Origin: a virus
Direction: 5' to 3' (one strand)
DNA length: 64,000 nucleotides
IMG/VR virus record: IMGVR_UViG_3300029286_000020
Coordinates: 1-64,000 of that record
Both the position numbers and the translations under genes were made by a program. The notes beneath the pieces are model-generated. The model saw nothing but the letters and a program-made list of their open reading frames with translations, had not been told where the DNA came from and did no database searches. Below, piece after piece: positions 37,338 through 60,636 of the stretch. Position 1 is the first letter of the stretch. The number at the start of each line of letters is the position of its first letter.

Positions 37338-38327
37338 TCAGAGGACTTCAGCGACCTTGAAGCGGTCGTACTTCCGGGCCAGCCGCGTCTCAGGGGTCGA
37401 GTCGGCGTAGAGGAGGCGAACGACATCGCGGAAGACGTTCCCTGTGATGCGACTGCCGTGTGCTTCGCTGTGGCTCCCGTCTTTCCGCTCGTAGGGCATC
37501 GAATAGATTGAGTGGTGTGCGCGGAACACGTCGCGGATGATCCACGTCAAGAATGGAAGCGAACCGGAAGTGAGCTGCAAGGACGATCCGTCTGCCTCTG
37601 CGTGCCCGTCACCATCGAACACCCCTCGAATGTACGACCAGACAAAGGCACGGTCGAGCTGGGTCGGCGGCTGGATCGTCAAAGACTTCCGAGGCGTCAC
37701 GTTGAAGTTCAGAGCCAAGGCTTCTACCCACCGGGGACACGTCACGTTCAGCCATGCGTAGATGCGCCCCGTGTTGTTCGGGCGAAGTGTGATCGGTTGG
37801 TCCAGCCTCGCGGCTATCTTGAAGCGCTCCAGCAGCTCCCGGTCGTCAGGGTGAATGCCAAAGGAAAGGGTGTCGTTCTCCTCGTGGACACAGCCATCAG
37901 CGGCAGCGAAGCCTGCCCAATAGGCAGAGACGTGATTCACCTCTGCGAAGAAGTCCCGGTCGAAGAACTTGTACTTCTGACCCCGGTCGCGCTGTGCAGT
38001 CACCACACGGCGTCTTCGGAGGTGAGTGAACACAGGCGTGTACGAAACACCGAGGGCGGCGGCGATCTCGTAGATGGTTCGTTTCTCGACGGTGAAAAGG
38101 CGCACAGCCTCATCCACGTCGAAAGTTGGTCGCTGAGCCTCTTGTGGAGAACGAGTTTTCCCGTGGGTGCGCAAAGTGCGGCTTACGATCCCTTGGGAGA
38201 GGTTGTATCTCGCCGCCAAATCGGTCTGAATCGATCCTGCAGCGTACTCCGCTAAAAGCGATGCGCGAATCTCTGGAGTCACGCGCCCATAGGGTTTGCG
38301 GTTCTTCGATCCCAGTGGTCGGCCCAT
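37338..38327 (-). mobile_element. free-standing double-motif LAGLIDADG homing endonuclease with N-terminal HTH domains
   Basis: SAYWAGFAAADGCV and WSYIRGVFDGDG; GAGG SD before ATG at 38327; capsid gene upstream is uninterrupted. Confidence 0.88.
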
Positions 38328-38401
38328 AAACACCTCGGTCCGCCAACCCAAGAAGAGCTGGCGGACCAAGCGTAGCACACCTGATTAGAGGCGTAGTATT
38401 T

Positions 38402-39898
38402 CTACAAATTCGTGACGCGCATCTGGCCGTAGTATTCCGGGCGCAAGAGCTTCTTCGCGTAGCGGGTACGCATCGCCTTGCGGAGCGAGAAGTCGTTCGG
38501 GTCGAGGAAGGTCTGAGTGACCTGCAGGGGGATGTACGGAGCCCAGACGTATCCGGCGTCGAGGAAGCTGCCGCCCTTGAGGCCGATCAGCATCTGGTCG
38601 CGCTGGAAGAAGGGGTCTTCGTAGACCATCCACTTGTTCTGCAAGGTGCCGACCTTGTAGATGCCGAACTGGCCCTGCGAGGACAGGGGGCGGGGCATGT
38701 CCATCGGGCCGTAGGGCGACTCAGCGCCCGAGACGTAGGCCGCGCGGAAGTCACCGTGCGTGGTGAGCTGCGCGAGCAGGGCGCTCACGTCGGGGCTCGT
38801 CACGATGAAGTTCGCGGGCGCACGCAGGGTCTTCTTGTGGATCTGGTTCGAGACGGTCGAGATGACCGTGAGCATCGAGCGCAGGTGGTCGAGTTCGCTG
38901 ATGCCAGCCGGGGGCACGCGGTCGAACGAGCCGGTCGTCGACGTCGAGTTCTGGAAGAGGTCATCGATGATCTCGCGATCGATTTCGAGGGCCATTTCCT
39001 GAGCGACGGCGGAGACGATTTCCGTCTCAGCGTCGATGCCGTGGAAGGCGCGGAGGTCTTCAGCGGCTTCGCTGGACCACAGAGCCTTGAGGCGGCGAGG
39101 CTGGGCTTCGACCGGGGCCTTCTTCACGTCGAGCTTCATCGACGGGATCTTGGTGTTCAGTTCGCCGTCGTAGACGTAGAACGCCTTGATCTGGTTGCCC
39201 AGACCGCACGCGACGGTGAACCGGAAGCCGGAGATGGCGCCGTTCGCGTAGTTGAGGGCACCCGAGAGCACGTTGCCAGTGAAGCCACCGGCACCGTCAT
39301 CGGTCGCCTGCTGGACAACGGCACCCGTGATGACGTTGAACTCGCGGACGATGGTGGCGAAGCCATTCGAGGCGTTCAGCGGACGAACCGGGTTGAACGA
39401 CAGGGTGGACGAGAGCGGAGCGCCAGCGCCGCCGAAGTCAGCGCCGTTGCCGGTGCCGAGGATCTCGCCGTCGATCTTCTCGGACGTGTAGTTGCGGTCG
39501 AAGTCACGAGGGAAGACCTGACCGCGCTGGGTCGGGGCCTTGTTCGTGTCGTAGACGTAGTCGAGGAAGAACACGGCGCCGACCGAGGCCGTCATCGGCT
39601 GCACGGACACGATGTCGTGGGCGATGAGGTTCGGGAACACGCGACGGAGGACGGGGAAGATGAACTTCGTGAACGAGCCGACGTTCACGAGGCGAGTCTC
39701 TTCTTCGAGGCTCTGAAGGTGCTGCGACTCGTTCTCCATCAGCACGGCAGTGACGCCGAGGACGTAGCGGTCACGCTCCGTTCGGTCGGGCATGCCTTCC
39801 AGCAAGTCCTTCCACTTGCGAACGAGGGCACCGACGTAGGTCTTGTCGGCGATCGTGCGGGTCGAACCTTCGAGAACCATGTTGCGAGCTTCCATCAC
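38402..39898 (-). CDS. major capsid protein (T4 gp23-like)
   Basis: KWKDLLEG, LMENE, RRVFPNLIA, VSVQPM, RRLKALWS.EAAEDL, EIDREII, YVWAPYIPL, TRY. Confidence 0.97.
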   Translation of the reverse strand: MMEARNMVLEGSTRTIADKTYVGALVRKWKDLLEGMPDRTERDRYVLGVTAVLMENESQHLQSLEEETRLVNVGSFTKFIFPVLRRVFPNLIAHDIVSVQPMTASVGAVFFLDYVYDTNKAPTQRGQVFPRDFDRNYTSEKIDGEILGTGNGADFGGAGAPLSSTLSFNPVRPLNASNGFATIVREFNVITGAVVQQATDDGAGGFTGNVLSGALNYANGAISGFRFTVACGLGNQIKAFYVYDGELNTKIPSMKLDVKKAPVEAQPRRLKALWSSEAAEDLRAFHGIDAETEIVSAVAQEMALEIDREIIDDLFQNSTSTTGSFDRVPPAGISELDHLRSMLTVISTVSNQIHKKTLRAPANFIVTSPDVSALLAQLTTHGDFRAAYVSGAESPYGPMDMPRPLSSQGQFGIYKVGTLQNKWMVYEDPFFQRDQMLIGLKGGSFLDAGYVWAPYIPLQVTQTFLDPNDFSLRKAMRTRYAKKLLRPEYYGQMRVTNL

Positions 39899-39959: not shown

Positions 39960-41624
39960 TCAGCCTTTGATACCAGCCAAAGCGCGAACTCGATCGAGGC
40001 TGATTCCAAGACCCTGCCAGTTTTGGCCTTCGGCCATGGTCCGGCGGGTCCGGGGAGCTTCGGTCTCTTCCGAGATTTCCGTCGGCGTGCGCTCGACGCC
40101 GCCGTTCATACGGCCACGGATGCGGGCGCGGACCGACTGGAGGTCGTCCTCGTCACGCTCAACTTCGCGCTCACTCTCCACGAGGGAGTCAACCGCTCGG
40201 CGAGAGGACGGACGGGTGCTCTCCACGAGGCCACGGAGCTTGGTCGCCTTCGGATGGCTGGCAAGACGCTCCTCCGCGTAGAGGCGTGTCTCCAGTTCCT
40301 TTGTCGAACGCTTGGCTTCGGCGAGGTCATCTTCCAGTTCCAAGCGAAGGGCCTTCTCTTCGGCCATCTTCTTTTCCATCGCAGCCAACTTGGACTCGAC
40401 AGCGTCGCGCTGTTTCCGCTCGACCTTCCGAGCCTCTGCGACTTCCTTGGCCTTGGCTTCCTGCTCGACCTTCTTTGCCTCGGTCTTGCGGCTCATCTCA
40501 TCCTTGACCTCGGTGACACGCTGCTTGAGCGCATCCGAACTCTCGAAGCTCTTGAGGTCGCCGACAAGGGTTCGGATGGAGTCGGCGTCGGGGTCGTTGG
40601 CAACCATCTTCTCAAGGTAGAAGCGGTAGCCGACTTCCTTGGCCATCTCAGCGAGAGCCGTGTTTTCCGACTCCAGATCCTTCAGCTTGAGGTCACGTTC
40701 CGCCAACTGCTTCTGCAGGTCGCGGATCTCGACGTCCTTGCCACGAACGACCTCAGCGGCGTCTTCGGGGAGGAGGTACGGACGGAGGACACCACGCAGA
40801 GCTTCCAGCACGGCTTTGGCCTTGCCGATCTCCGGGTCTTCCATCATTTCCTTCCGCAGTTCATCGCGAACTGCGGCACGGACGGTCGAGAGGTTGTCGA
40901 GGATTGCCTTCGCGAAGTCGTCGCGGACATTGCGCGAACCGGAACCCTGCTTGGCGCCCATCTCACCTTCGATGCGTCGAGCAAACTCCTGAGCCTTCGC
41001 CGCATCGCCTTCGAGGGGTGCCTTCTTGGCAACCATCTCAGCCTCGATGCGCCGAGCGAACTCAATCGCCTTCTCCTGTTCAGCATCAGCGTCGAACTCC
41101 ACACCCTCGAACAGGGAGCGGCTTTCGCCCATCACTGGGTAGGCGTCTTGGTCAGCCGGGTCTGCGACGAAGTCGAAGGTGACCAGCTTGTAGTCATCCT
41201 GCACGATGTCGTTCCCGCTCTCGTTGGTCTTGACGCTGCCGAAGCCACGGCTGGAAACGCCAACGGGGACGTTCGACTTGAGGAGCGCGAGAAGGTTCTT
41301 CCCTGCCTCGGTCGGCATGATCTCCGCCTCACCGATCACGAGCCCGTCCTTGACGGAGAGGTCCGTGATGATGTGCGAGACGCGGGACAGCTTGGTCTGG
41401 CCATCGCTGGGATGGTCGATCTCGCCCATGACCCTGCGTTCCTTGAGAGCCTTGCCGAGCCGCTTCAGCTCCTTCTCCCAAACACCCTTCGGGTAGACGC
41501 GCTTGTTCTCGGTGGCGATGCCGCATTTGGCAAACTCACCTCGAACTTTGACGCGGCCACCCTCGCCTCCCTCAGCAAGAGAGAGGCGCACAATGGAAAC
41601 GTCGCTCAGAAGTGGCTTGGTCAT
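39960..41624 (-). CDS. prohead protease (T4 gp21-like) fused to coiled-coil scaffold
   Basis: NKRVYP, GEIDHP, GVSSRGFGS, FDFVADPA; long charged coiled coil; ends RVRALAGIKG. Confidence 0.93.
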   Translation of the reverse strand: MTKPLLSDVSIVRLSLAEGGEGGRVKVRGEFAKCGIATENKRVYPKGVWEKELKRLGKALKERRVMGEIDHPSDGQTKLSRVSHIITDLSVKDGLVIGEAEIMPTEAGKNLLALLKSNVPVGVSSRGFGSVKTNESGNDIVQDDYKLVTFDFVADPADQDAYPVMGESRSLFEGVEFDADAEQEKAIEFARRIEAEMVAKKAPLEGDAAKAQEFARRIEGEMGAKQGSGSRNVRDDFAKAILDNLSTVRAAVRDELRKEMMEDPEIGKAKAVLEALRGVLRPYLLPEDAAEVVRGKDVEIRDLQKQLAERDLKLKDLESENTALAEMAKEVGYRFYLEKMVANDPDADSIRTLVGDLKSFESSDALKQRVTEVKDEMSRKTEAKKVEQEAKAKEVAEARKVERKQRDAVESKLAAMEKKMAEEKALRLELEDDLAEAKRSTKELETRLYAEERLASHPKATKLRGLVESTRPSSRRAVDSLVESEREVERDEDDLQSVRARIRGRMNGGVERTPTEISEETEAPRTRRTMAEGQNWQGLGISLDRVRALAGIKG

Positions 41625-41827
41625 CAGTACCGTCTCCAGCGGAAGTTGCTTCGGAAAGGGGTCCGGGCCAGTTGGCCGGAGTCCTTCTTTTGCACCTTCC
41701 GTGCTTTGCGTCGAAAGGGGTTCAGGTCTCGTTTTTCAGCGCCGATCAGCTCACGTCTCCCGCTGGAGTACGAGGCACGACGATTCCGCCATGCCTCCTC
41801 CGTCGAGGACGAGTTCAGTCGTTTCCC
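41624..41827 (-). CDS. putative -1 frameshift extension of 41815..42492 (Arg-rich)
   Basis: G GGA AAC at 41821..41827; -1 frame open to TGA at 41624..41626, which overlaps the protease ATG. Confidence 0.6.
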   Translation of the reverse strand, partial: GKRLNSSSTEEAWRNRRASYSSGRRELIGAEKRDLNPFRRKARKVQKKDSGQLARTPFRSNFRWRRY

Positions 41828-42492
41828 GAGGTCTCTTCGACCTCTTCTTCGTCTTCGTCTTCGTTGTTGTCCTCGTAGAGGTCAACGGCGTCGAGGATGG
41901 TCTCCATCCCCTCGGCAAAGGCAGCGGCGACGTCCTCAGCGGACTCTTCGAGCTTGCCTTCGCTCATCGCGGTGGCGATGTCGGCGAATGACTCAGCAAT
42001 CTCGCTGAGTTCACCAACAAGGCTGGCGAACATGCGCTCGTCGCTGGCCTCGTACTCGTCGGCCTTCACCCACTCGGTGAAGATGCCAGCCAGCTTATCG
42101 GCGATGATGGCTGCGTTGGCGAACGACTTGAGGGTCTCGTTGGCGTCGACAGCCTCTTGGCGCGTGCCCTTCTGGATCGCCTTGGCCGTGACCTTCGCCA
42201 TGCGGCGCTGGCCCTTGGCGGACCGACGCATCTTGGCCTGCTTGCGAGCGGACTTCTTGCCGCTCGCCGAACGGCGCTGCTTCTTCGCGGCGAGGCGGTC
42301 AGCCATCGACGTCTTCTGCTGCTTGACCTTCTTGCCACCGCGCAGAGCGAACTTGATGCGGCCCGCCTCGTCGAGCACCTCTTCCTCTTCCTCCTTCGGA
42401 GCAACCGGAGCGGGGGTCGGAGCGGACTCACGGATGAGTCCGATCTTGCGGAAGTCTTCTTCAAGGGTGGTGACAACGATCTGGTTTCGCAT
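41815..42492 (-). CDS. prohead core / scaffold-like protein (basic middle, acidic end)
   Basis: GAGGAG SD; between portal and protease; K/R-rich segment and multiple xxE sites. Confidence 0.65.
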   Translation of the reverse strand: MRNQIVVTTLEEDFRKIGLIRESAPTPAPVAPKEEEEEVLDEAGRIKFALRGGKKVKQQKTSMADRLAAKKQRRSASGKKSARKQAKMRRSAKGQRRMAKVTAKAIQKGTRQEAVDANETLKSFANAAIIADKLAGIFTEWVKADEYEASDERMFASLVGELSEIAESFADIATAMSEGKLEESAEDVAAAFAEGMETILDAVDLYEDNNEDEDEEEVEETSGND

Positions 42493-43528: not shown

Positions 43529-45325
43529 TCAGCGCGCGCCTCGGGCGTTGAGATCTCGGAGCAGACCGCCAATTTCACGCAAGCGCAACTCCAAGCCTCG
43601 ATCGGACTTCAGGATGGTGTCGAGCTTGGCGTCCATGCGTTTTGTGTCCTTCGGGTTGTAGCCCTCGGTCAACTCTCGGTCGGAGAAGCCGCTGTGCGTT
43701 GGGATCCCGCGACGACGGGCTGCGTCACGCGAGCTTGAGAGAGCCTTCACCACCCGGTTCGGCTGGCGAGCCTCTGCTGGGGGACCATACGGGCCCTCTT
43801 CGGGGGGCGCTTCGCCCGGAGGAGCTTCCATCGGTGGAGGCGGGGGCATGATGATGTTCTGTGCAGCGGCTTGATTTTCAGCGTCCTCGGCAGACTCCCC
43901 ACTGCGCTGCTTCTTGATGGTGACGATCTCGTCTTCAGACAAACCGAAGACGTTCGAGAGAATCCACTGCAGCGAGACGAAGTCCCGCATGCGTGCCGCG
44001 AGGTCCGCTTTGGCCGTGCGAACTTCCATCTGAGCCAGCTCGAAAATGGCCGACGGCACCGTCATGTTGATGTCGTAGTCGACAGCGTAGGGGTCGAGGC
44101 CCAGCGCTGACAGATGGACGCGGGCGACCTTCCGGAGCCCGTTCTTCAGCTCCCGCTGGATGCGGAGGACGGTACGAGCAAAGCGGACATCCTCGCTGGA
44201 CAGAACCGCCCGGGCCACACCGGATTCCTGCCCAAGGTACGCCTTCGGCACCTTGATGGCTGAAAACAGCTTGTCGCGGAAGTATTCGATGTCGTCCATC
44301 GCCTGCCACTGCGGGGCACCGAGAGTCTCGATGCGAGTGGAGTCCACGCCCTTCCGGGTAGGAACGAAGAAGTCCTCGTCCTGCGACAGCGCGTCGAACT
44401 TCAGGTTCAGTTTTCCAGTGCCCGGGTCAACAAACCGCTTCTTCCGGAAGTTCTGGCGGACACGATTCACGAAGGCGAGGGCTTCCTGCGGGGGCAGATC
44501 GCCGACATCGACGTAGAACGCAAAGCGCTCCGGGGCCCGCTGGAGGCGGTACACGAGGGCTGCGTCCTCCAGCAGCATGAGCCGCTTCCAGATCCAACGA
44601 GCAGCCTCCAAGGCGCTGTGGCCGTAGACCGAACGGCGCTCCTTCCCGCGCAAGCGAAAGTGGACCACCTCCCAGCTCTCAAACGCCGCCACCGGCTGAT
44701 TCATCGGGTCCGAGCTTGTTGCCAAGTCGAACTTCGCAGACAGGGTTCGCTGGAAGTCGTTGTTGGTGAAGTCGAAGCGCCCCTTGAAGTCCTGCATGAA
44801 GCCGATCAGGTCACCCTTCGGGGTTTCAAGGCGGCGGACCGTCGGAGGAGGCAGATAGTTGATGCCTCTGACGCCGTCAGCGTTGACCAGAAGCTCCTCG
44901 TAGTCGTTCCCGTACTTGCACAAGGTTCGTGCAATTTCCCAGATCTCTTCGTCCATGCGAAGCGTTCGATTGAACAAGTCATCGAGGTTGCTTTGCAGAG
45001 TCTTGTCTGGAGAGGTGATCCAGATGGTTCGGTGGAGAACGGAGTCTGGCTGAGTCGCGTCGTCCGCGAGGATGTCGAGGGCAGTGGCGATCTCCCCGTA
45101 GTCGTCCATCTCCTCGTAGTCAGCGAACCGGAGGAGGAGGTCCGTGTCAAGGCGCAGGTAGTCCGTGAGGGCGTCGTAACCCACACCCGACATCAGGTCG
45201 ATGGCTGTGGCGTCGCCACCGCCCAATTCGCCCGTCGCACCCTTGGCAAGCTGGATGTTCGCTTGGTCCTTGTCGCGGCTGAACGCAGCTGAAATTCGCT
45301 TGGCGACGTCGTCCGCGAATCCCAT
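43529..45325 (-). CDS. portal protein (T4 gp20-like)
   Basis: YEEMDDYGEIATALDI, YGHSALE, LLEDAALVYRLQRAPERFAFYVDVGDLP, EDFFVP, IETL.G, KVPKAYL. Confidence 0.96.
   Translation of the reverse strand: MGFADDVAKRISAAFSRDKDQANIQLAKGATGELGGGDATAIDLMSGVGYDALTDYLRLDTDLLLRFADYEEMDDYGEIATALDILADDATQPDSVLHRTIWITSPDKTLQSNLDDLFNRTLRMDEEIWEIARTLCKYGNDYEELLVNADGVRGINYLPPPTVRRLETPKGDLIGFMQDFKGRFDFTNNDFQRTLSAKFDLATSSDPMNQPVAAFESWEVVHFRLRGKERRSVYGHSALEAARWIWKRLMLLEDAALVYRLQRAPERFAFYVDVGDLPPQEALAFVNRVRQNFRKKRFVDPGTGKLNLKFDALSQDEDFFVPTRKGVDSTRIETLGAPQWQAMDDIEYFRDKLFSAIKVPKAYLGQESGVARAVLSSEDVRFARTVLRIQRELKNGLRKVARVHLSALGLDPYAVDYDINMTVPSAIFELAQMEVRTAKADLAARMRDFVSLQWILSNVFGLSEDEIVTIKKQRSGESAEDAENQAAAQNIIMPPPPPMEAPPGEAPPEEGPYGPPAEARQPNRVVKALSSSRDAARRRGIPTHSGFSDRELTEGYNPKDTKRMDAKLDTILKSDRGLELRLREIGGLLRDLNARGAR
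43782..43795 (+). repeat. 14-bp quasi-palindrome, copy 8 (GGACCATACGGGCC), inside portal
   Basis: Read directly; encodes GPYGP. Confidence 0.88.
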
Positions 45326-48547: not shown

Positions 48548-50386
48548 TCATTTGCTTCCCCAACTTTGGCCCCCGCCGACTTCCGCGCGCGTCGGGACGG
48601 ACGGAAGCATTGGAGCGATGCCTTCGATCATGCCGTCGTGCAGCTCCTGCCGAACGTGAATTTCCAGTTCAGGATCCTCGTCGTGTTCGCAGACGATCTC
48701 GTCGTGGACCATATGGACCGGCGCGCACTTCGCCCCCTTACCGAGAAGGGGCGTTCGCCCTGCAAGCTTCTTCATACGGTCGTAGACGTTGCGGATGGCA
48801 ACCTTGAGGCCGTCGGCCCCAGTGCCTTGGATGGGGCTGTTGTAGAACTCGTTGTGTGCCTTCTCATCCTTGATGATGCGTCGACGACCCCAAGCCGTCC
48901 GGGTCTCGCGCTGACGCTTGCCTGAGTCCATCGCCAACCGATGCCACGAGTCGATCCCCGCGTATGCCTCGAAGAAGCGTCGGCGGAACGTGCGGGCTTG
49001 GTTCTCCGTGAACGACACCCCGTAGCCCTGCTTCGCGTACATCACAAGGCGAGCGGCCTGCATCCCGTAGATGAAGCCGAAGTTGACCGGCTTGGCTTGC
49101 TGGCGTTCGGCCTTCACGATCTCCGACTCAGGCTTGCCGGTCACGAGGGACGCCGTCGCGTAGTGAGCATCGCGGTCGTCTCGGAACACCTTGATGAGCA
49201 CCGGATCCTTGGAGATCTCGGCAACAATCCGCATCTCGATGTTGCTCCAATCGCAGATGGCCAAGGTTCTACCGGGCTCGGCCCTGAAGCAGTCTCGAAA
49301 GGCACCCCCACGAGGTACTTGCTGGAGGTTCGGTCCTCGATTCGCGTAGCGCCCCGTGTCTGTGAAAGGGAAGTACGACGAGTGGATGCGACCCGACGTC
49401 GGGTGGATATTCTTCAGGTACTCCTCGCCGAACGCCTTCACCGACTGCGCATAACCTCGGTACTCGATGAACTCTTTGAGGATTGGCCAGCGGTCAGCCT
49501 CCATAGCCAGCGTCATCTCCTTCGTGTCCATCAAAGGGACTGTCTTCGTCAGCCCGGTCTCCGGGTCTTTCCACTTCTGCTTCACTCCCAGCATGTGGAA
49601 GGACCGAAGGATCTGGTCGGTAGAGTCGAGGTTGAAGCTGGCAGGACCGAAGAGGCCCAACTGGTTCGATGGGTTCGGGAGCTTGGAAAGCAAGCTTGCC
49701 CGCAGCCGCTCCAGCTGAACCCGGTCCGATGCTGTCCGCGTGAGCCACATATCTTTGTTGAGGAAGAACCCGTTCAGCTCCATGCACGCTTCGGGGAGAA
49801 CCGCATTGAACTCCAGCTGTGCAATCTTCACCAGCCGCGCATCGACGATCTTTTTCTTGAGGACGTCGCGGAGCCGGGGAAGCTTGTCGATGTCGTCTGC
49901 GGCGTAGTCAAGCTGTCGCTGTGTCAGCGTCCCGTCCCAATCGGAACCGCCGAGGTCTTCGACGGTCGCGGCTTCGCCCAGCTCGCGCTTGTAGAGGCTC
50001 CACAGGTCGTGCTTCAGCCCGGGGAGGCCCGCGTAGATGATGCTCGACGCGCGCAGGGTGTCGAACAGCTTCCCGATCTCCAGATCGAAGTGCCAGAGCA
50101 GCCACTTCTGGTCGAACTTCATGTTCTGACCGACCGTGACGCCCTTGGTCCGCCTGAAGGCATCCAAAACGGGGCCGAGCGTCTTCGTCTTGTAGAGGTC
50201 AATAAGGTAGAGACCCTGTCCGGTGTTGACCGAGAACAGGCGTGGACGCCCTGTCAGGGGGTCGAAGCTACCCCCACCGCCGATCTTTGCGGTTTCCAGA
50301 TCGAGCCCGATGACATCGGCACTCTCAATTTCACGAGCAATAGCGGCGAGCAAATGCTCATCAGTGACGACGGTGTACGGGCGCAA
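48548..50386 (-). CDS. polA: family A DNA polymerase (3'-5' exonuclease + polymerase, no 5'-3' exonuclease)
   Basis: ExoI DLE, ExoII NMKFD, ExoIII YAADD; motifs A DWSNIEMR, B RQQAKPVNFGFIYG, C HDE; TTG start with GGAG SD. Confidence 0.96.
   Translation of the reverse strand: MRPYTVVTDEHLLAAIAREIESADVIGLDLETAKIGGGGSFDPLTGRPRLFSVNTGQGLYLIDLYKTKTLGPVLDAFRRTKGVTVGQNMKFDQKWLLWHFDLEIGKLFDTLRASSIIYAGLPGLKHDLWSLYKRELGEAATVEDLGGSDWDGTLTQRQLDYAADDIDKLPRLRDVLKKKIVDARLVKIAQLEFNAVLPEACMELNGFFLNKDMWLTRTASDRVQLERLRASLLSKLPNPSNQLGLFGPASFNLDSTDQILRSFHMLGVKQKWKDPETGLTKTVPLMDTKEMTLAMEADRWPILKEFIEYRGYAQSVKAFGEEYLKNIHPTSGRIHSSYFPFTDTGRYANRGPNLQQVPRGGAFRDCFRAEPGRTLAICDWSNIEMRIVAEISKDPVLIKVFRDDRDAHYATASLVTGKPESEIVKAERQQAKPVNFGFIYGMQAARLVMYAKQGYGVSFTENQARTFRRRFFEAYAGIDSWHRLAMDSGKRQRETRTAWGRRRIIKDEKAHNEFYNSPIQGTGADGLKVAIRNVYDRMKKLAGRTPLLGKGAKCAPVHMVHDEIVCEHDEDPELEIHVRQELHDGMIEGIAPMLPSVPTRAEVGGGQSWGSK
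48706..48719 (+). repeat. 14-bp quasi-palindrome, copy 9 (GGACCATATGGACC), inside polymerase motif C
   Basis: Read directly; encodes VHMV of PVHMVHDE. Confidence 0.88.
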
Positions 50387-50443: not shown

Positions 50444-51898
50444 TTAGCCCTGCTTTGACTCAGGGACAGCATCGATGCCCGGGTCTTCAGTTCCTTCACC
50501 CGGCTTGAACGTCGGAGCCGTCTTTGCCAGCTGTTCAGCCTCCCACTTGGTCGCTGCAGCGTAGAGTGCGAGCAGAGCCTCGGCGGTCATCGGCTTCTTC
50601 ATCGACTCCTCCATCCAGTTCGGGTTGCCGACCGTGTCGTTCCCCGCCTGAGCAAACATCTGCTTCGGAGCAGTCGGATCCGTCACGTTAACAACAATCG
50701 CCGATGAGGCTTCAGGGGCCAGTTCAGCGAACGACGCAGGCAGCTTGATGCGGGCGGCTGGGAAGATTTCCGGTTTCACGAAGCGTCCGAAGCGCACCCC
50801 TCGGTCTTCGGCCCTGATCCGGACCGCATCCAAGCCTGTCATATCGTCGGTGTCGCGAACATGGGCGAGGACGAGTTTGACGTCGTAGCCCTTCGATCGA
50901 GCCTCCTTGATGACACCCTTGTAGTAGGCCGTCGATGTGCCCACCCCGTCGAGCAGGAAGGGGTAGTACTCCCCGGGGCTATCAGGGTCTTCCGACATCG
51001 CGAGGTCAATGGCAGTGTCGTTGAGGTTCGATACCTCGCTGTGCGTGATGATGGCACCGTTGCGGGCCTTCGTCGCCACCGCCGCTTGGTATTCCGGCAG
51101 CTTGGTGCGGTGCGCGTCCGCGTCGAGCACAGCCAGTTCGTCGGGGTTCTCCGCGAGGTAGCGCGCCAGCGTGCTCTTCCCGCTGGCTGGCATGCCCATC
51201 GTGATGACCGCTACAGGATTCCGCACGCGCTTCTTCCCTCGGAAGACGTCGTCCAGAATCGTTTTGTGCAGACGTTGGCGCTCTGAGGTCAGGACTCCGT
51301 CAGGCGTAGTGTGCGCCTTGAGCGTGTCCGTTGGCAGGTCTGGGTTGGCGTCGGTCCACTCCATCCCCGCACCGAGATGTAGCCACGATCCGTTCGGCTG
51401 TTTCTTGAACCAAGAGTCGCGCGACGCCCAGAAGTGAACCGTACCGACCGGAGCTTCCTCCCCTCGGGCCTCGTCGAAGTCGAACACGACGGGGGTGACA
51501 CTCTCGTTCTGGGCGCTTGGAGGCCCGTACTCCTGCGCGTAGGTCTCTGGCACCTCTGCGGCGTGCAACACAAGGTAGACGTCGCCCTGAGTTTTCAAAG
51601 AGGCCAGAGTCGCGTCGGAGAGACCGAACCGATCAGGGTGCTGTCGAACCATGTCCACGGTGACTGGGGTGAATGTGAGCTGGTTTCCGTCGGCACTGAT
51701 CGCCGTAACCACGCCGTCAGGATGCTTCTTCAGGTCCCGCATTGGGATGTCGAAGTCAGTCTTCGGTGCTTCGTCAGATTGCCAGAAGTGCCAGACACTG
51801 AGCCCAGCCTCGGTTCCCCGGTCGGAGGCCCCGCTCAAAACAAGCCGATCCAACCAGTCGCCAGACGTCAGCCAATAGGACGTGAAGTAGTCGAACAT
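50444..51898 (-). CDS. zeta-toxin-like P-loop kinase with N-terminal extension
   Basis: TSERQRLH, GMPASGKST, DADAHR..LPEY, HSEVS, LLDG, R...RG...GRFV. Confidence 0.85.
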   Translation of the reverse strand: MFDYFTSYWLTSGDWLDRLVLSGASDRGTEAGLSVWHFWQSDEAPKTDFDIPMRDLKKHPDGVVTAISADGNQLTFTPVTVDMVRQHPDRFGLSDATLASLKTQGDVYLVLHAAEVPETYAQEYGPPSAQNESVTPVVFDFDEARGEEAPVGTVHFWASRDSWFKKQPNGSWLHLGAGMEWTDANPDLPTDTLKAHTTPDGVLTSERQRLHKTILDDVFRGKKRVRNPVAVITMGMPASGKSTLARYLAENPDELAVLDADAHRTKLPEYQAAVATKARNGAIITHSEVSNLNDTAIDLAMSEDPDSPGEYYPFLLDGVGTSTAYYKGVIKEARSKGYDVKLVLAHVRDTDDMTGLDAVRIRAEDRGVRFGRFVKPEIFPAARIKLPASFAELAPEASSAIVVNVTDPTAPKQMFAQAGNDTVGNPNWMEESMKKPMTAEALLALYAAATKWEAEQLAKTAPTFKPGEGTEDPGIDAVPESKQG

Positions 51899-54800
51899 CA
51901 GTAGCCCGCCGGTTTCAAGTGGTCCGTGTAGAAATCATCCGAGTGGACCACAAGGTCTTCGACCGGCATGCCATTGAAGTCCGTCACACCGGCTGCCTTC
52001 AACCCAGCGATGACTTGATTCCGGGCGGTCGCCGACTGCGTTCGGATCTTGATGACCTTGTTCGGGCTGAAGCCGTGGCGAAACATCATCTCTGTCTTGC
52101 CCTGCGTACTGGAACTTTCGAGAGGTTGGCGATTGTCGAAGGGTGTCCCAGACGTCTTTCCGTAGTTGTCGCCGCTATGCGTAAACACGTCCAAGCGGTC
52201 CAGTTCACTCGGGTCAACAACCATCTGAATTTCACCCCACGCGAAGTCTTTGTTGTCCTCCAATCCGGGCTTGGTGAACAGGTAGTCCGCGCCGCCAGTA
52301 TTGATGTCGGCGGACCCACTGGTCGTCCCTGACGTTGGGATGCCGAGCTGCAAGCGGTCACCGACTGCAATGGACCCGCTGAGAAGGTGTTTCACCACCT
52401 TGTCGACGCTGCCAAAGCCGTGACGGACGTACTTCATCTTCGGATTGGCTGCCAAAATCTTCTTCGACCTCCCGGGAAGCACCGGCACCACGCGTCCATT
52501 GAAGCCGACCTTCTCCAAGCGGATCGAGTTCAACTCCGCGTCCGTGTAGCCATTCTTCTTCAAGATGGCGCGCAGGTTTTCCGATGTCCGCCCCTTCTCA
52601 GGGAGAGAGTTGGACAGTTGAGGAGCGACGGCCCACAGCATGGAGGAGAGTTTCATGACGTCCAGATCGTCCTTCGACGGTGGAGTCATCACAGCCTTGC
52701 CAACTGCAGGGTTGGCCGTAATCAACAGCCCTTCGAGGGCGTCCTCCACGGACTGCCCAGCTTTCGGATACACGTCCGCAACAACCATCCCAAGGAACGT
52801 GCGTTGTCCGTTTTCGCCTGTTCCCATAGACAGCTGACTGTCTCCGCTGGTCCACTTCCTCGTCTCAAACGTGCCGCCAGACAGTTTTCCACCGCTCTCG
52901 ACCCAAGTGTCGGTCGCAGGGTCGTAAGACATCTTCGGGTAATCGAACTCGCTCGCGGTCCCTCCGGTCATCTTATTCTGTGCCGCTTCACGCAGCTTGA
53001 AGGACACGCGGTAGAACGTCTTGCCCTTCGCGTCCTTGTGACGCTGCACCATCATTGAGTTGTGCTCGACCATGTTGCCGTCGGCGATCATGACCTTTCC
53101 GAGCGACAGCTTGGCTTTCTCGATGTTCTTGATGAGAGCGACTGTCTCCTTCTGCTCGTCAAGCACAACGTTCTTGAGGACACCGGGCTTGGGCACCACC
53201 GTGCCTTTGCCCGATGGCGGAGGCGCCGCCGGAGGGAGGTCGACCAGAACACTGATGTTCTTGCCAGACGCCTGCCCTTTGGCCAGTTCAGTCTTCGGCA
53301 TCATGGCAATGACGAATTCGCCCTTCACCTTCAGGCTCAGCGGCGTCAAGCCGAGTTGCTTCAGGGACTCCTCAGCTTCAGATAGCGTCAGGTTCTTCAG
53401 CTTGACGATGACGTTCTCAGAGGCGCCGTCAGGGGCGCCGTCGGGGCCCTTCGGTGGCTTGGTCTTGTAGAAGTTGCCGTCTGGCCCGGTCGAGAAGAAG
53501 GTACTTCCCGACTTGACACTCCACATCTTGCCCTTCGGCGGATCCGAGTATCCCCACGGATTCGGCGGAGCGACCGGAGCGACCGGAGCCTGTGCGTTTG
53601 CAGGGCTGTAGAGGTCTACGCCGGAAGCACCGAGTTTTCCTGTCTTGGTCACGTCAACTTCGAGTTGAGGCTGGACGCCTGAGACAGGCGCTGCCGGGGG
53701 AGCCGCAGGTGCCGTGACACCCGTCCCGTCGTCCCAACCACCTGCAAACGTGAAGGTGCCCTTCTTCTTCGTTCGCTTCGCGTAGAGCCCGCCGATGAAC
53801 GACTCGAAGTCCTTGCGGATGTTCTGCTTGCGCGCGAGCGCAAGGTCGAGGAACTCCGCGACCTTCTTCGGGTCGTCTTTGAACTTGGCCTCGCTGGCAA
53901 ACTTCGAGAGAAGTTGCGTGTAGTCACTGTCGCTGATGGCTTCGATGCGCTCGATCGCACCAGTCATCTCCTTCGGGTCGAAGGACATCGAGCCGTCAGC
54001 GAACGCCTTCCAGAACTTGTTGTAGTAGGGTTCGTTTTCGACTTTGTTCGGGTGGTAGTCGATTGCGAGCTTGTCACCGTCAGCCGATTCGGCGGTGCCG
54101 GGCAGCATGAACTTGAAGCCCTGCTCCTTGTCGACGGAAAGTAGTGCCCCGTCAGGACGACGAACAAAGTTTGCTGCGTGCGTATCGTGCTGCGACATCA
54201 ACCAGTCGAGGGCGTGCTCCTCAGCAACGTCCTTCCGCTCACTGTCCGTCAGAAGCGAAGGGTTCGTCCCTGCAGCGCCGAGAGGCGTGGCACCTGCCAT
54301 CCAAGGCTGGATCGAGGCGGGGATGCCTTTGTAGCCTTCGGGGACATTGCCCACAGGAATAGACTTCCCGGGCCGAACGACGCTGGAGACCTGAGAGAAC
54401 ATCTCCTGCGCTGCGATGCGGAAAGGCTCGATCTTCGCCTTGTTCTTCGACCGGGCCAACTTGACGAGGTACTTCCCGTCCGGACCTGCGAAGAAGAACT
54501 TCTCGCCCGCTCCTCCAATACCAGAGGCTGCACCCTCCGGTACGAGAGAGCTGATGGACGGTAGCTGGGGCGGTGACAGGATACTGCCCATCGGAGGAAC
54601 CGAGATCCCCCCGAGGTCTTTCTTCTTCTTCTTCCCCGCCTTTGTGGCGAGAGAGACCTTACCAGCCTCGAACTCGAACGTGTCGGTCATGCCGATGTCG
54701 CCGCGTTCCTGAAACACGCCGGTGAGGAAGGCTTCCAAGTCCTTCCTCACGTTCTTCTTGCGCTTGAGGATCTCGTCCTTGAGCACAGTCAGCTCTTTCG

Positions 54801-56736
54801 GAGAGCCACCCTTGGCACCGAGGTAGGGACCGAGGTTCGCGAGCCAAGCATCGTCAGAGATGTCCTCGATCTTCTCGATTGCAGGAAGCATGGCGCTGAC
54901 CGGCAGGTCAACTTTCTTCTTCTTGAAGAGGTCGAACAGCGCTCCGTAAATCAGAGGTGATGGGTTCGGCTTGTACGTCGTGTCGAGGCTGTCTTTGCCG
55001 ATGAACTTGAGAGCTTGATCCTTGTCAATCCCAACAACGTTGCCGTCATTGGTGAGCATGAAGTTCGCAGCCTTCGCGTCGTGACTGGCAAGGGCCCAGT
55101 CAAGGACGCGCTCCTTCATCAGCCGCGCGAGTTGGTCGGGAGTCAACGTCGTCAGGTCAACCTTGCTGAGGTCGGTCTTGATGTTCGGGATCATCGGCTG
55201 AACGGATCCTGATCCAACACCGCTCACAGTTCCAACAGCAACAGGGATGGCGCCTTCCGCGCCGAAAACCTTGGCAGCGATATTCGCGTAGGCAGCAGCG
55301 GCGAGCGCAGGAGCATTCGCGCCCGTTTTGAAGAGGAAGGTGTTTCCTGCTGCATCTTTGACGAACTGCTTTGGATGCGCTCCACCCAACGAAGCCTTTG
55401 CGTCACCGACGAGAGACAAGGTCGTCAGAGGCGGGATGGCAGGCAAGCCCAGACCTCCCGATGTGACGGGAGCGGTCTGGGTTGCGGTCGGTGTCGTTGT
55501 GGTGGGAGCAGGCGGGGCTGCCCGGGGAGTCTTAGGCCCCTTGAGGATGACAACCACCCTGAACGCTTGTCCGACAAGGGCGGATGTGTCGGCAGCGTGA
55601 ATGCCGTCGAGCCACCACTTCCCACCGATCTTCTCGAAGGTGAACCCTTTGGGGTTCTGAATCGTGACGCCTTCCTGCCCATTGTTCAGGTCCGCAAGGT
55701 TGAAGGTCACGAAACCGGGCGGGGCCGGAGAGGTGGCAGGAGGCGTCGGAAGAGAGATTGCGGCCACAGGGGCAGGGGTCGGAAGCGGGACCGGAGCTGC
55801 AGGAGCAGGAGCCGGTGTCAGCATTGGTGATGCAGCCATCGGCTTGAACTTCACAACGTCGATGTCGTCGTCGTCTTCGTCCGACGTGACATTGACGAGA
55901 CCAGCTTTCTTGGCTGAGGCAATCGCCTTGTTGACCGTCTTCGCGGCTTTCGCAAAGTCGTCTTCGGAGGCGTCGTCACCCCCGGCCAAGGCAACAGTCG
56001 CGTCAACGTCGTTGCCGTGCTTGTGCAGCGACTCCAGCGCCTTGAACTCCATTGATCCGGGCGCGAAGTTTAGGATCTTCGCCGCGTTTGCAACCTCAGG
56101 CGCAACCGGGTTCAACCCGGGAACAGCGAAGCCAAGCGCAGCGGCCTGCGCCTTCCAGTTTGCTCCGTAGACCTTCAGCAGCACCGAAGTGACCTGTGGG
56201 TTCTTCAGCAGCTTGAGGTCGGTCGTCGGGTCTTGACCGAATTGGACCGCGTGAAGGTAGGCGTCCAGCGGAACAGACGCTGTTCCGCCGAGCGCAGCCT
56301 GCACATCAGCCTTCGTGATCGCCTGTGGCGACACAGGGGCGGCAGGACCGGGGCTGGGCTGAGGTACCGGCGCCGATGCAGGCTGCAGGTCGTGGAGGGG
56401 CTCCGCCGCGCTCGACTGGCCTTCCTTCGTCAGCACGTCCTTCAGGGTCTTGTTCAGATCCTTCAGGATGAGGTCGGTCGCCGCCTTGTAATGCTTCGGG
56501 ATCTCCCCGATGACTGTGTTCGCCAGAGGCGTCCCCGGCTCCGGGTCTACAAGGTCGTCGATGTACTTGAAGACATTCGCGTGCTTGATGTGGACGGGAA
56601 CGAGGCCGAGGCTCTTGTTCCCGTCCTTGTGTTTGTACGCGTAGACGAACTTCGGAGTGATCCGAAACGCAGAGGCTTCCGCCAGAGCTACGGCTTCAAG
56701 CAGCGACATCGCCTGCTTCGGACTGGAGTCGGTCAT
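51898..56736 (-). CDS. 1612-aa multidomain protein: two HipA/PI3-4-kinase-like domains and a C-terminal ADP-ribosyltransferase-like domain
   Basis: GGAHPK..FK..DWALASHDAKAAN..ID and GGAGEK..VK..E..DWLMSQHDTHAAN..VD; C-terminal YVRHG..GGADYLF..EMMF; Pro-rich linkers. Confidence 0.7.
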   Translation of the reverse strand: MTDSSPKQAMSLLEAVALAEASAFRITPKFVYAYKHKDGNKSLGLVPVHIKHANVFKYIDDLVDPEPGTPLANTVIGEIPKHYKAATDLILKDLNKTLKDVLTKEGQSSAAEPLHDLQPASAPVPQPSPGPAAPVSPQAITKADVQAALGGTASVPLDAYLHAVQFGQDPTTDLKLLKNPQVTSVLLKVYGANWKAQAAALGFAVPGLNPVAPEVANAAKILNFAPGSMEFKALESLHKHGNDVDATVALAGGDDASEDDFAKAAKTVNKAIASAKKAGLVNVTSDEDDDDIDVVKFKPMAASPMLTPAPAPAAPVPLPTPAPVAAISLPTPPATSPAPPGFVTFNLADLNNGQEGVTIQNPKGFTFEKIGGKWWLDGIHAADTSALVGQAFRVVVILKGPKTPRAAPPAPTTTTPTATQTAPVTSGGLGLPAIPPLTTLSLVGDAKASLGGAHPKQFVKDAAGNTFLFKTGANAPALAAAAYANIAAKVFGAEGAIPVAVGTVSGVGSGSVQPMIPNIKTDLSKVDLTTLTPDQLARLMKERVLDWALASHDAKAANFMLTNDGNVVGIDKDQALKFIGKDSLDTTYKPNPSPLIYGALFDLFKKKKVDLPVSAMLPAIEKIEDISDDAWLANLGPYLGAKGGSPKELTVLKDEILKRKKNVRKDLEAFLTGVFQERGDIGMTDTFEFEAGKVSLATKAGKKKKKDLGGISVPPMGSILSPPQLPSISSLVPEGAASGIGGAGEKFFFAGPDGKYLVKLARSKNKAKIEPFRIAAQEMFSQVSSVVRPGKSIPVGNVPEGYKGIPASIQPWMAGATPLGAAGTNPSLLTDSERKDVAEEHALDWLMSQHDTHAANFVRRPDGALLSVDKEQGFKFMLPGTAESADGDKLAIDYHPNKVENEPYYNKFWKAFADGSMSFDPKEMTGAIERIEAISDSDYTQLLSKFASEAKFKDDPKKVAEFLDLALARKQNIRKDFESFIGGLYAKRTKKKGTFTFAGGWDDGTGVTAPAAPPAAPVSGVQPQLEVDVTKTGKLGASGVDLYSPANAQAPVAPVAPPNPWGYSDPPKGKMWSVKSGSTFFSTGPDGNFYKTKPPKGPDGAPDGASENVIVKLKNLTLSEAEESLKQLGLTPLSLKVKGEFVIAMMPKTELAKGQASGKNISVLVDLPPAAPPPSGKGTVVPKPGVLKNVVLDEQKETVALIKNIEKAKLSLGKVMIADGNMVEHNSMMVQRHKDAKGKTFYRVSFKLREAAQNKMTGGTASEFDYPKMSYDPATDTWVESGGKLSGGTFETRKWTSGDSQLSMGTGENGQRTFLGMVVADVYPKAGQSVEDALEGLLITANPAVGKAVMTPPSKDDLDVMKLSSMLWAVAPQLSNSLPEKGRTSENLRAILKKNGYTDAELNSIRLEKVGFNGRVVPVLPGRSKKILAANPKMKYVRHGFGSVDKVVKHLLSGSIAVGDRLQLGIPTSGTTSGSADINTGGADYLFTKPGLEDNKDFAWGEIQMVVDPSELDRLDVFTHSGDNYGKTSGTPFDNRQPLESSSTQGKTEMMFRHGFSPNKVIKIRTQSATARNQVIAGLKAAGVTDFNGMPVEDLVVHSDDFYTDHLKPAGY

Positions 56737-57601: not shown

Positions 57602-58411
57602 TCAAGAATCAAGGACCGCTTTGGCCGTATCTTTGGACTTGTCGAGCGCCTTCAGAGCCTGCTTCCCTGCCTCTTCAATGAGGGGCGCCAAGAAGTCGTT
57701 GACGTCTTCGTTGGCGTGCTTGCAGTAGGCAAGAACCTTGTCGAGGGCCTTCTTGGTGTTGCGATTCATTTGCACATAGATGTGCTCTTGCTTGCCGAAC
57801 GAAAACACCATGAAAGAGAGGTTCACCGTGTCGCCGTGCTTGGCGAAGAGGTGCTGAAGGATGTTGGAGAGGTCTTCGACTGTCTTGGCTTCCTTGGCTT
57901 TGTCGTCGAACTCGTCCTGTAGCTCTTTCGGGAGCGACTTCTTCAGCCCGCGCTTCACATCGCCGACGATCTTCTGGAAGCCCTTTGTGTCAGCGTAGCC
58001 CATCAGCTGTTGGAGAGCGTCGGCGCCGTACTTCGTCGCCATTTCTCCGTAGAGCTTGGCGAACTTCTCTGGATCCAGTTTTCCCTTCAACACGTTCAAT
58101 CGAACGGTGACGAACTTCTGAAGATCCTCGTCTTGCCACTTCGAGTCTGAAAGGACCGCACAAGGCAGTTCGTCGAGCCCAATGATCTTGGCTGCCTGCC
58201 AGCGATGCTCGCCACCGATGATGCGATAGGTGCCGTCGTCCATCGGCACCACTTCGAGGGGATCTAGGAAGCCCACGTCGCGGATCTCGTCGACGAGACG
58301 CTGAAAGGTGATCTCGTCTTGACCCTGTGGGTTCCACGAGTTCGGGTGAATGAGGTCGATGGGGATGTGACGAAGTTCGATGCGACCGGGTTTGACGTCA
58401 GGATTGCTCAA
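57602..58411 (-). CDS. ParB/Sulfiredoxin N-domain protein with possible C-terminal RHH-like domain
   Basis: IPIDLIHPNSWNP, GFLDPLEV, IIGGEHRWQAA. Confidence 0.88.
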   Translation of the reverse strand: MSNPDVKPGRIELRHIPIDLIHPNSWNPQGQDEITFQRLVDEIRDVGFLDPLEVVPMDDGTYRIIGGEHRWQAAKIIGLDELPCAVLSDSKWQDEDLQKFVTVRLNVLKGKLDPEKFAKLYGEMATKYGADALQQLMGYADTKGFQKIVGDVKRGLKKSLPKELQDEFDDKAKEAKTVEDLSNILQHLFAKHGDTVNLSFMVFSFGKQEHIYVQMNRNTKKALDKVLAYCKHANEDVNDFLAPLIEEAGKQALKALDKSKDTAKAVLDS

Positions 58412-59700: not shown

Positions 59701-60028
59701 AGATTCCTCCACGGATTGGCTGCGGCGGGCCAAAGAAAGACAGCTCCCATGCCCGTATCTCAGTCGCTCGTCCAACGGGAGAGTCGCGGTTCATCAGCTC
59801 GCCTTCGACGAGGACGTAACAGCCTTTCTCCAGTTTTCCGCGACACGCCTCAACGAGCCCGTCGATGTAGACGTTGATTTTGACGCAGACCGTCAAGCTT
59901 CCTCGGTTCGTGGGACGCTCGGACTCGATGAAGAACGTGCAGGCGTCCGCGCCTTGGACGTGGGTTTTGGAGAAGGTGATGCGATCAGTGACGTGTCCAG
60001 CAATGAAGACTCGGTTGAGGCCGCGCAT
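59657..60028 (-). CDS. ssb: single-stranded DNA-binding protein
   Basis: LNRVFIAGHV...LEKGCYVLVEGEL OB-fold pattern; acidic tail. Confidence 0.8.
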   Translation of the reverse strand: MRGLNRVFIAGHVTDRITFSKTHVQGADACTFFIESERPTNRGSLTVCVKINVYIDGLVEACRGKLEKGCYVLVEGELMNRDSPVGRATEIRAWELSFFGPPQPIRGGIFDEPNRRSDVDPEP

Positions 60029-60636
60029 TCAACCATCCTTCGCAGAAGCAAGACCTCCGCACTATCGCGGCAAGCGACTACAGCCGCAAGTGCGTCATAA
60101 GGGTGCTCAATCTGGCTGGCTGGGATACCAGATTTCGTCATCAAGCCGGTGGGCCCCACGAGGTCGGCACGGAAAAGAAGGTTCAGCGATGCCTGTACCT
60201 CCTCTTTGGATGCGGACTTATTCTGGCACATGGTCTTCTTGATCTCTTGCGGGGACGCCTGCGTCACAGGGATCCTCTTGAGCGCCGAGAAGGCCGCAAT
60301 CACCCCCCAGCACATCGCCATCTTCGCCGCGACGGAGGAGCTTCGGGGGAAGGACATCGTCTCCGCGCAGATGATTTTGATGTCGTAGGACGACACCACA
60401 GAGTTCAGCCACGAGGCGATCTCTTTGGCACGCTCCAGATTGTCGTCGGAGGCTCGGACCTTCCGCTTTGCAGTCGCCTTTGAGGTGCGACACACAGTCA
60501 TCTTCACCGGACGGTCGTCCTGTGGATTTGGTCCGACGGCGTAGACGCAGAGGCCGATCGACGCGAAGCCCGGGTCGATGCCCAGCACGTAGAGAGGCCG
60601 GAAAGAACCAAGCGGGGCGAGAGGAGACTCGTTCAT
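59893..60636 (-). CDS. ruvC: RuvC-like Holliday junction resolvase
   Basis: VLGIDPG, ICAE, ASKEEV, HPYDALA. Confidence 0.88.
   Translation of the reverse strand: MNESPLAPLGSFRPLYVLGIDPGFASIGLCVYAVGPNPQDDRPVKMTVCRTSKATAKRKVRASDDNLERAKEIASWLNSVVSSYDIKIICAETMSFPRSSSVAAKMAMCWGVIAAFSALKRIPVTQASPQEIKKTMCQNKSASKEEVQASLNLLFRADLVGPTGLMTKSGIPASQIEHPYDALAAVVACRDSAEVLLLRRMVECAASTESSLLDTSLIASPSPKPTSKARTPARSSSSPSVPRTEEA

Follow-up and report, generated by a model that had tools for sequence, protein, structure and literature searches.

A giant phage protein with two atypical kinase domains and a DarT-like ADP-ribosyltransferase domain is a polyvalent effector that is probably packaged in the phage head

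Here we describe a giant gene on the minus strand (51898..56736) of a 64,000-nt stretch of viral DNA, referred to as the window, which covers positions 1 to 64,000 of the IMG/VR virus record IMGVR_UViG_3300029286_000020. The viral contig from which the window is taken measures 91.5 kb and has ~60% G+C and a CheckV completeness of ~54%. The gene is a single uninterrupted open reading frame with a GAGG ribosome-binding site 5 nt upstream of its ATG, and it encodes a protein of 1612 amino acids (aa) that we call P0001; other P-numbers denote protein homologues, and L-numbers such as L002 or L010 denote related viral contigs. P0001 carries two tandem kinase domains and a C-terminal ADP-ribosyltransferase (ART) domain whose predicted fold is closest to DarT. 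We conclude that it belongs to the polyvalent effectors, and that it is probably a head-packaged effector of a myovirus with a T4-like head, serving host shut-off or the disarming of host defences.

Kinase domain 1 spans aa 440-715 (54592..55419, minus strand) and kinase domain 2 spans aa 716-1012 (53701..54591, minus strand). An initial annotation, made from the DNA letters alone, had proposed two homologous HipA/PI3-4K-like domains, and both are found in their expected places (~aa 446-679 and 739-999). They are related well beyond chance, with a BLASTP E value of 2e-22 at 31% identity and an hhalign E value of 2e-56 over 256 columns when their family profiles are compared. The motifs quoted for domain 1 are present, namely FLFK (K470), HDAKAAN (552-558, that is H552-D553-A-K555-A-A-N558) and IDKDQ (570-574, with D571), as are those of domain 2, namely YLVK (K759), AAQE (775-778, with Q777), HDTHAAN (850-856, that is H850-D851-T-H853-A-A-N856) and VDKEQ (868-872, with D869). 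The proline-rich linkers between domains are likewise real: three Pro/Ala-rich segments, at aa 111-140, 296-345 and 402-440, contain 23-32% Pro, and a weaker one at aa 1005-1050 contains 13%.

No Pfam kinase family matches P0001, and in the homologues P0021 and P0035 the PI3_PI4_kinase family reaches 23.7 and 17.9 bits on the catalytic loop, below its cut-off of 27.1. The HipA/PI3-4K-like label is nevertheless right at the level of fold and motif, as judged from a model of domain 2. This AlphaFold2 model (aa 715-1012, built with 30 homologues) has a predicted local distance difference test score (pLDDT) of 93.6, and VIA-align matches it to PI4KII-alpha with Z 14.6 (237 residues aligned, root-mean-square deviation (rmsd) 3.8), CtkA with 13.4, actin-fragmin kinase with 11.7, ATM with 11.1, Fam20 with ~11, MavQ with 10.5 and HipA with 10.2. 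Foldseek returned at least 500 kinase chains at E<=1e-3 for the same model, all of its matches being kinases at ~1e-5. Domain 1 is assigned the same fold by its homology to domain 2.

Residue conservation was counted over the 28 homologues that have two kinase domains. In domain 2, K759, Q777, H850, D851, T852, H853, D869, K870, E871 and Q872 are present in all 28 and N856 in 27; in domain 1, K470, H552, D553, K555, N558, D571, K572 and Q574 are present in every one. On this evidence the complete catalytic set appears to be retained in both tandem domains. In more distant relatives the kinase domain is single and resembles domain 2 more than domain 1, which makes domain 1 the derived copy.

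The DarT-like ART domain lies at aa 1422-1605 (51922..52473, minus strand) and includes H1439, R1461, S1473, D1477, Y1485, R1514, D1516 and E1549. DarT and DarT1 (PF14487) are the toxins of DarTG systems that ADP-ribosylate thymidine or guanosine in single-stranded DNA (PDB 8baq, 7omu, 7omv, 7yk3). A model of aa 1200-1612 (pLDDT 92.1) splits into an alpha/beta domain, a helical bundle and an ART fold. In a VIA search of 48,161 representative chains, which is independent of Foldseek, the four best matches of the ART model are DarT1 (8baq, Z 11.3, 157 residues aligned, rmsd 4.1), the Thermosipho DarT(G) (7omu, 11.2), the Thermus DarT (7omv, 9.8) and the Mycobacterium tuberculosis DarT (7yk3, 9.3), with 148-157 residues aligned over the four. 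Tpt1 (7.4), SopF (6.5), CopC (6.3) and OspC3 (6.0) come next, and 13 of the first 14 matches are ARTs or NAD+-dependent enzymes of ART fold. DarT entries also rank first in the Foldseek search of the PDB (probability 1.0-0.89), and a search of BFVD with the ART model gave weak matches, the best at E 1e-4. The C-terminal DarT-like ART that had been proposed from motifs is thus borne out by the model. The initial annotation had allowed that the folds might turn out to be neither kinase nor ART; the models of domain 2 and of the C-terminus matched kinases and ARTs.

The H...Y/F...E layout that had been read from this domain holds in part. The quoted motifs YVRHG (H1439), GGADYLF (Y1485), EMMF (E1549), FSP and VIKI are all present, and the Glu of EMMF sits at the catalytic position and is invariant in sets of 30 and 46 sequences. 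His1439 and Tyr1485, however, vary among homologues, and the conserved partner of the Glu is Arg1461, as in DarT. This Arg is invariant among close homologues and nearly so in the wider family, likewise S1473 and D1477, while in the wider ART set G1481, R1514 and D1516 show no variation either. His(beta1), Arg(loop), Tyr(beta2) and Glu(beta5) follow one another as H13, R51, Y71 and E160 do in DarT, the Arg being matched by sequence order only; R51 and E160 are both required in DarT, and the Tyr is missing from DarT1. The catalytic Glu of DarT stands at the start of beta5 (E160 in DarT2, E152 in DarT1), and its counterpart in P0001 is E1549. The ART signature thus reads as an Arg...Glu pair of the DarT type and not as a conserved H-Y-E triad.

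At the level of sequence profiles the likeness to DarT is faint. When the ART family was compared by hhalign with 21 DarT proteins, all taken from a single phylum's genomes, E1549 and the FSP/VIKI strands aligned weakly to their 'AEFL' segment (P 0.0015, probability 17%). Mapping of the His or the Arg onto DarT by an extended hhalign alignment was tried and rejected as too weak, the Glu/beta5-beta6 segment being the only one recovered confidently. Pfam DarT (PF14487) has no match in P0001 at E<=1 and none at E<=10 in a six-frame search of the contig; it touches 4 of 46 ART relatives weakly, with a best E of 3.1e-4.

P0001 begins with a putative propeptide or capsid-targeting leader, aa 1-20 (56677..56736, minus strand), in which L-L-E14/A and L-A-E20/A are candidate cleavage sites, the slash marking the predicted cut. 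Of 32 family members, 30 have a site of the form [LIV]-x-E-[AGS] between aa 12 and 44, where chance would give it in ~11%; it occurs across sub-families with unrelated flanks, and the two members without it look N-terminally truncated. Nine of 11 distant syntenic homologues bear such a site some 17-24 residues in, counted from the likely start, in N-termini that are otherwise unalignable. Among 93 other large ART-bearing proteins, 47 have the site within their first 50 residues, compared with 11% expected from the per-residue rate. In the same phage, the major head protein carries V-L-E10/G and L-L-E34/G, and a 225-aa putative core protein (41815-42492) carries L-D-E42/A; such N-terminal LxE[AG] sites in head and core proteins are consistent with a T4-like maturation cleavage. 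The phage encodes a prohead core serine protease of family S77 that resembles T4 gp21 (39960..41624, minus strand; Pfam Peptidase_S77 3.6e-17, phrog_207 1.9e-41). T4 gp21 cuts N-terminal leaders of 10-20 residues off internal proteins, and off Alt, at ITE/LTE (PMC5694885), to which the motif of P0001 corresponds. P0001 therefore combines what marks packaging of the T4 Alt type, an [LI]-x-E leader site and a gp21-family protease gene, with a cleavage that is presumed. The conserved L-x-E-A site together with the S77 protease gene makes head packaging the best reading, as far as a short motif can carry it. Virion delivery of P0001 is plausible, with additional support from relatives fused to MuF.

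These relatives belong to a family whose 36 large homologues measure 985-2511 aa. A phmmer scan of aa 1400-1612 against 1.84 billion representatives found the ART family in 751 clusters at E<=1e-3, of which 169 pass E<=1e-10; in most members the domain sits at the very C-terminal end of a protein of 1000-4000 aa, and some are short and stand-alone. Among 46 shorter members one carries MuF (P0066, MuF with the same ART). The kinase domain occurs with MuF in P0034, with VG15 and ADPrib_exo_Tox in P0036 and P0037, and in mycobacteriophage proteins annotated as 'minor capsid and ADP-ribosyltransferase fusion', whose genes directly follow the portal gene. It also forms the C-terminus of a 1442-aa relative (L013:6491-10819) that combines ART-PolyVal (PF18760) with DUF3626, and architectures with one and with two kinase domains both exist. 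In BFVD the ART model also matches a DUF3626 protein weakly; together with the L013 architecture this hints that DUF3626 may be ART-related. Polyvalent proteins and MuF toxins are described as shuffling their domains in this way (PMC5512222, PMC5576092, PMC9503650), and the idea of ARTs and polyvalent proteins carried in the head is set out in PMC5512222 and PMC9503650. P0001 has the two kinases and the unrelated ART within one phage polypeptide, and the same domains recur in varied architectures; fusion to a virion-incorporation domain such as MuF or portal, a further mark of polyvalent proteins, is absent from P0001 itself.

The family is essentially restricted to uncultured phages and has no model match in Pfam, PHROGs or NCBIfam. 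Against 50,697 GenBank phages, megablast with the gene and tblastn with aa 1-430 and aa 1010-1612 gave no match, and only the kinase domain matches mycobacteriophages. Scans of genome contigs found no ART domain, and the kinase domain in five short contigs of metagenome-assembled genomes only, and thus give no clue to the host. New here are an unnamed DarT-related ART family, an unnamed family of tandem atypical kinases and, if our reading is right, a head route of the leader type and not of the MuF type.

The remaining parts of P0001 are less easily assigned. Whole-protein scans gave nothing in PHROGs and NCBIfam and a single sub-threshold PASTA match in Pfam, and PDB sequence searches with the protein, the full-length family profile and the ART-family profile gave no meaningful match. 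The N-terminal region, aa 21-439 (55420..56676, minus strand), consists of a conserved module (aa 21-110) followed by the Pro/Ala-rich linkers and unassigned segments; it has no Pfam, PHROG, NCBIfam, PDB-sequence or ESM Atlas match, the Atlas having been queried with aa 1-330. Many homologues share aa 7-148, and a search for shorter proteins bearing the N-terminal module gave one fragment at a contig end only. The middle region, aa 1013-1199 (53140..53700, minus strand), contains the PASTA match (aa 1113-1155, E 0.034, 14.6 bits compared with a cut-off of 23.2). The alpha/beta domain, aa 1200-1350 (52687..53139, minus strand), is confidently modelled, with weak structural matches to type III secretion chaperone, YbjN and StART-like folds (Z 3.6-4.5). 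The small domain that precedes the ART, aa 1353-1420 (52477..52680, minus strand), is helical in the model and matches KorB and helix-turn-helix (HTH)-like bundles at Z ~4; homologues show sub-threshold RecX_HTH1 matches, at the equivalent place in L004. At the very end of the protein, the residues L-K-P-A-G-Y (aa 1607-1612, 51901-51918) are almost invariant in the family and recur as K-Y-[VIL]-K-P-L-G-[FY] in most distant syntenic homologues. The motif may belong to the ART fold or serve as a signal for docking or processing.

All genes surrounding the giant gene are on the minus strand. In local gene order they run from RuvC (59893-60636) through the gene of a 378-aa protein (p378), a ParB-like nuclease (57602-58411) and the gene of a 275-aa protein to the giant gene, and on through a Zeta-toxin protein (50444..51898), the family-A DNA polymerase PolA (48548-50386), a 252-aa protein (p252), TerL, the T4-type portal (43529-45325), the S77 prohead protease and the major head protein (38402-39898), so that TerL and portal belong to the same co-directional string. 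The Zeta-toxin protein has 484 aa with its kinase domain at aa 222-407 (Pfam Zeta_toxin 1.7e-17); the start of its gene overlaps the stop codon of the giant gene by one base, and the two genes are translationally coupled. A homologue of the giant gene occupies the same position in 11 related IMG/VR contigs (RuvC, p378, ParB, giant gene, variable slot, PolA, p252, TerL, portal). The slot between the giant gene and PolA holds the Zeta-toxin protein here and an alarmone-synthetase-like RelA_SpoT protein in L010:12591-13784, and it looks like a site for exchangeable effector cassettes. Unrecognised small proteins fill the same slot at L004:13065-13970, L005:12993-13541 and L002:12539-13030. An N-terminal domain common to the Zeta-toxin protein, the L010 RelA-SpoT protein and the giant proteins was considered and rejected (BLASTP E 0.038, HMM search E>=0.15).

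Elsewhere in the window there are no paralogues of any part of the giant protein, and a scan for promoters and terminators gave nothing exceeding shuffled controls. In several related contigs the TerL and portal matches are broken into 2-3 pieces that lie ~1-1.2 kb apart (L002:13815-18155, L003:14162-17752, L004:18619-22557, L014:19782-22526), which suggests inteins, introns or homing-endonuclease insertions; both genes are unbroken in the window, unlike in those contigs. A 346-aa gene (37338-38378) adjoining the major head protein gene matches phrog_4645 'endonuclease' (1.1e-27), and could encode a homing endonuclease lodged in the head module.

We propose that P0001 is probably packed into the prohead by means of its short N-terminal leader, that the leader would be removed at L-A-E20/A by the gp21-like S77 protease, as happens to T4 Alt and internal proteins, and that the processed protein would be ejected into the cell together with the DNA. 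There, the tandem kinases of the PI4KII/CtkA/HipA type most likely phosphorylate Ser/Thr residues of host proteins, possibly different ones. The ART would rely on Arg1461 and Glu1549 to transfer ADP-ribose from NAD+ to a host macromolecule, and nucleic acid is favoured as its target because DarT and Tpt1 are the nearest structural neighbours. The coupled Zeta-toxin kinase protein in the variable downstream slot would be a companion effector. The net outcome would be host shut-off or disarmed defences.

Alternative explanations exist both for the individual domains and for their route into the cell. The initial annotation had called domain 1 a pseudokinase, and one might accordingly see in it a regulatory domain exerting allosteric control over domain 2. 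At the helix-C position aligned to Gln777/Glu778 domain 1 of P0001 does read Ala-Ala, and the His of D-x-H-x-x-N is replaced by Lys; yet the beta-3 Lys (K470), the catalytic Asp (D553), the Asn (N558) and the Mg-binding Asp (D571) are kept throughout the homologues, so that the loss of beta-3 Lys, catalytic Asp or Mg-binding Asp by which a pseudokinase is recognised is not seen. D-x-K-x-x-N is moreover the ordinary catalytic loop of active Ser/Thr protein kinases. The helix-C Glu is itself variable, E778 of domain 2 occurring in 12/28 homologues and Glu or Gln occurring at the aligned position of domain 1 in 15/28, and domain 1 is as conserved as domain 2 (mean identity to P0001 55% versus 59%, both above every other region). 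We therefore drop the label and regard a regulatory pseudokinase as improbable. That the C-terminal domain modifies proteins, in the manner of Alt or AcrIF11, or is an NADase, with its likeness to DarT a matter of shared fold, is possible if somewhat doubtful. The protein-modifying SopF, CopC, OspC3 and CteC also match the model (Z 4.9-6.5), the ARTs of polyvalent proteins are predicted to modify proteins (PMC5512222), and His1439-Tyr1485-Glu1549 resembles the H-Y-E of protein-targeting ARTD enzymes. The DarT matches, however, stand 3-5 Z units above those protein-modifying matches, the near-invariant Arg1461 parallels R51/R52 of DarT, the His and Tyr are unconserved in the family, and a small helical HTH-like domain precedes the ART.

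The same domains might also do their work without packaging, being made from the incoming genome early or midway in infection and acting in the producing cell as T4 ModA/ModB or the T7 kinase do. This we consider rather unlikely. It would accord with the position of the gene in a run with ParB, RuvC and PolA, and 1612 aa is large for an internal head protein; the conserved N-terminal L-x-E-A site beside a gp21-like protease, the repeated fusion of both effector domains to head-incorporation domains in relatives, and the presence of TerL and portal in the same gene string speak for packaging instead. A weapon of superinfection exclusion or abortive infection aimed at competing phages, rather than a tool of host takeover, seems highly improbable: DarT, Zeta and RelA-SpoT are classic toxin domains of defence and toxin-antitoxin systems, and the downstream slot varies as toxin cassettes do, but no antitoxin or immunity gene is recognised adjacent to the gene, which is conserved and syntenic across the whole phage group as a core function would be. 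Several observations do weigh against a head-packaged, DarT-like effector. Pfam, PHROG and NCBIfam reveal no MuF, VG15 or other known head-anchoring domain in P0001, and the giant gene stands among replication-type genes, ~6.5 kb from the portal gene and outside the head module. The L-x-E-A motif is short and the homologues that share it are not independent samples, and we infer both the cleavage specificity of the S77 protease and the presence of P0001 in virions. As to the enzyme, the DarT match is at the level of fold, being missed by Pfam DarT and scarcely visible in profile-profile comparison, and the solved structures that we saw include none of the ART-PolyVal clade, so that 'closest to DarT' may partly mirror which structures are available. 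Searches of the 91.5-kb contig, itself only ~54% complete, for Macro, NADAR and ARH domains gave no ADP-ribose hydrolase that could protect the phage DNA.

With these points taken into account, we keep the head-packaged effector as our preferred reading and compare it with known systems. P0001 is like the polyvalent proteins (Iyer, Burroughs, Anand, de Souza, Aravind 2017, PMC5512222) and the MuF polymorphic toxins (Jamet et al. 2017, PMC5576092) in being a giant multi-enzyme phage polypeptide, in the shuffling of kinase and ART modules among relatives fused to MuF or VG15, and in its Zeta-toxin or RelA-SpoT companion, which fits the described domain catalogue. It differs in having no MuF, portal or other described anchor, for which we propose a T4-style L-x-E-A leader instead, in an ART that is not of the H-Y-D ART-PolyVal / Tox-ART-HYD2 type, and in kinases that have no above-threshold Pfam match, keep a helical C-lobe and are duplicated in tandem. 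With DarT it shares the best structural match (Z 9.3-11.3), the H-R-Y-E order and an invariant Glu with a nearly invariant Arg, but identity is ~10-13%, below the Pfam threshold. DarT is moreover a 200-aa toxin, whereas the ART of P0001 is the C-terminal module of a 1612-aa phage protein that has no DarG or NADAR partner found in its contig (~54% complete) and would serve the phage instead of acting against it. PI4KII-alpha, Helicobacter pylori CtkA and HipA/HipT (PDB 4pla, 3akj, 4pu3, 7ab3) share with domain 2 a bilobal fold over 209-237 aligned residues, the beta-3 Lys, the D-x-H-x-x-N catalytic loop and the Mg-binding Asp; P0001 differs from them by an identity of ~10-13%, the lack of a HipB/HipS-type partner, and tandem copies of which one has D-x-K-x-x-N. 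T4 Alt, finally, is alike in its proposed logic, an ART in a T4-type head with a leader ending in [IL]-x-E in a phage with a gp21-family protease, but it belongs to the R-S-E Alt/VIP2 clade, has 682 aa and no kinases, and packaging of P0001 is presumed by comparison.

A bolder version of this proposal, which we hold tentatively and consider doubtful as a whole, is that the chemistry of DarT, known until now as a toxin of bacteria against phages, has been adopted by phages as a weapon that they inject. A DarT-related ART family would then ADP-ribosylate host DNA or RNA on entry, delivered in this phage along with two active atypical kinases, a cleavable leader of the T4 style taking the place of MuF.

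The outcome of the first minutes of an infection is believed to hinge on injected multi-enzyme effectors, of which, to our knowledge, very few have been assayed. If the ART modifies nucleic acid as DarT does, a chemistry of defence would also be used offensively by phages. The tandem kinases, both of which look active, recall the broad anti-defence phosphorylation that a recent study reports for the T7 kinase (PMC13645617). If the L-x-E-A leader is real, it would provide a simple sequence rule for predicting head-packaged effectors without MuF in phages with T4-type heads.

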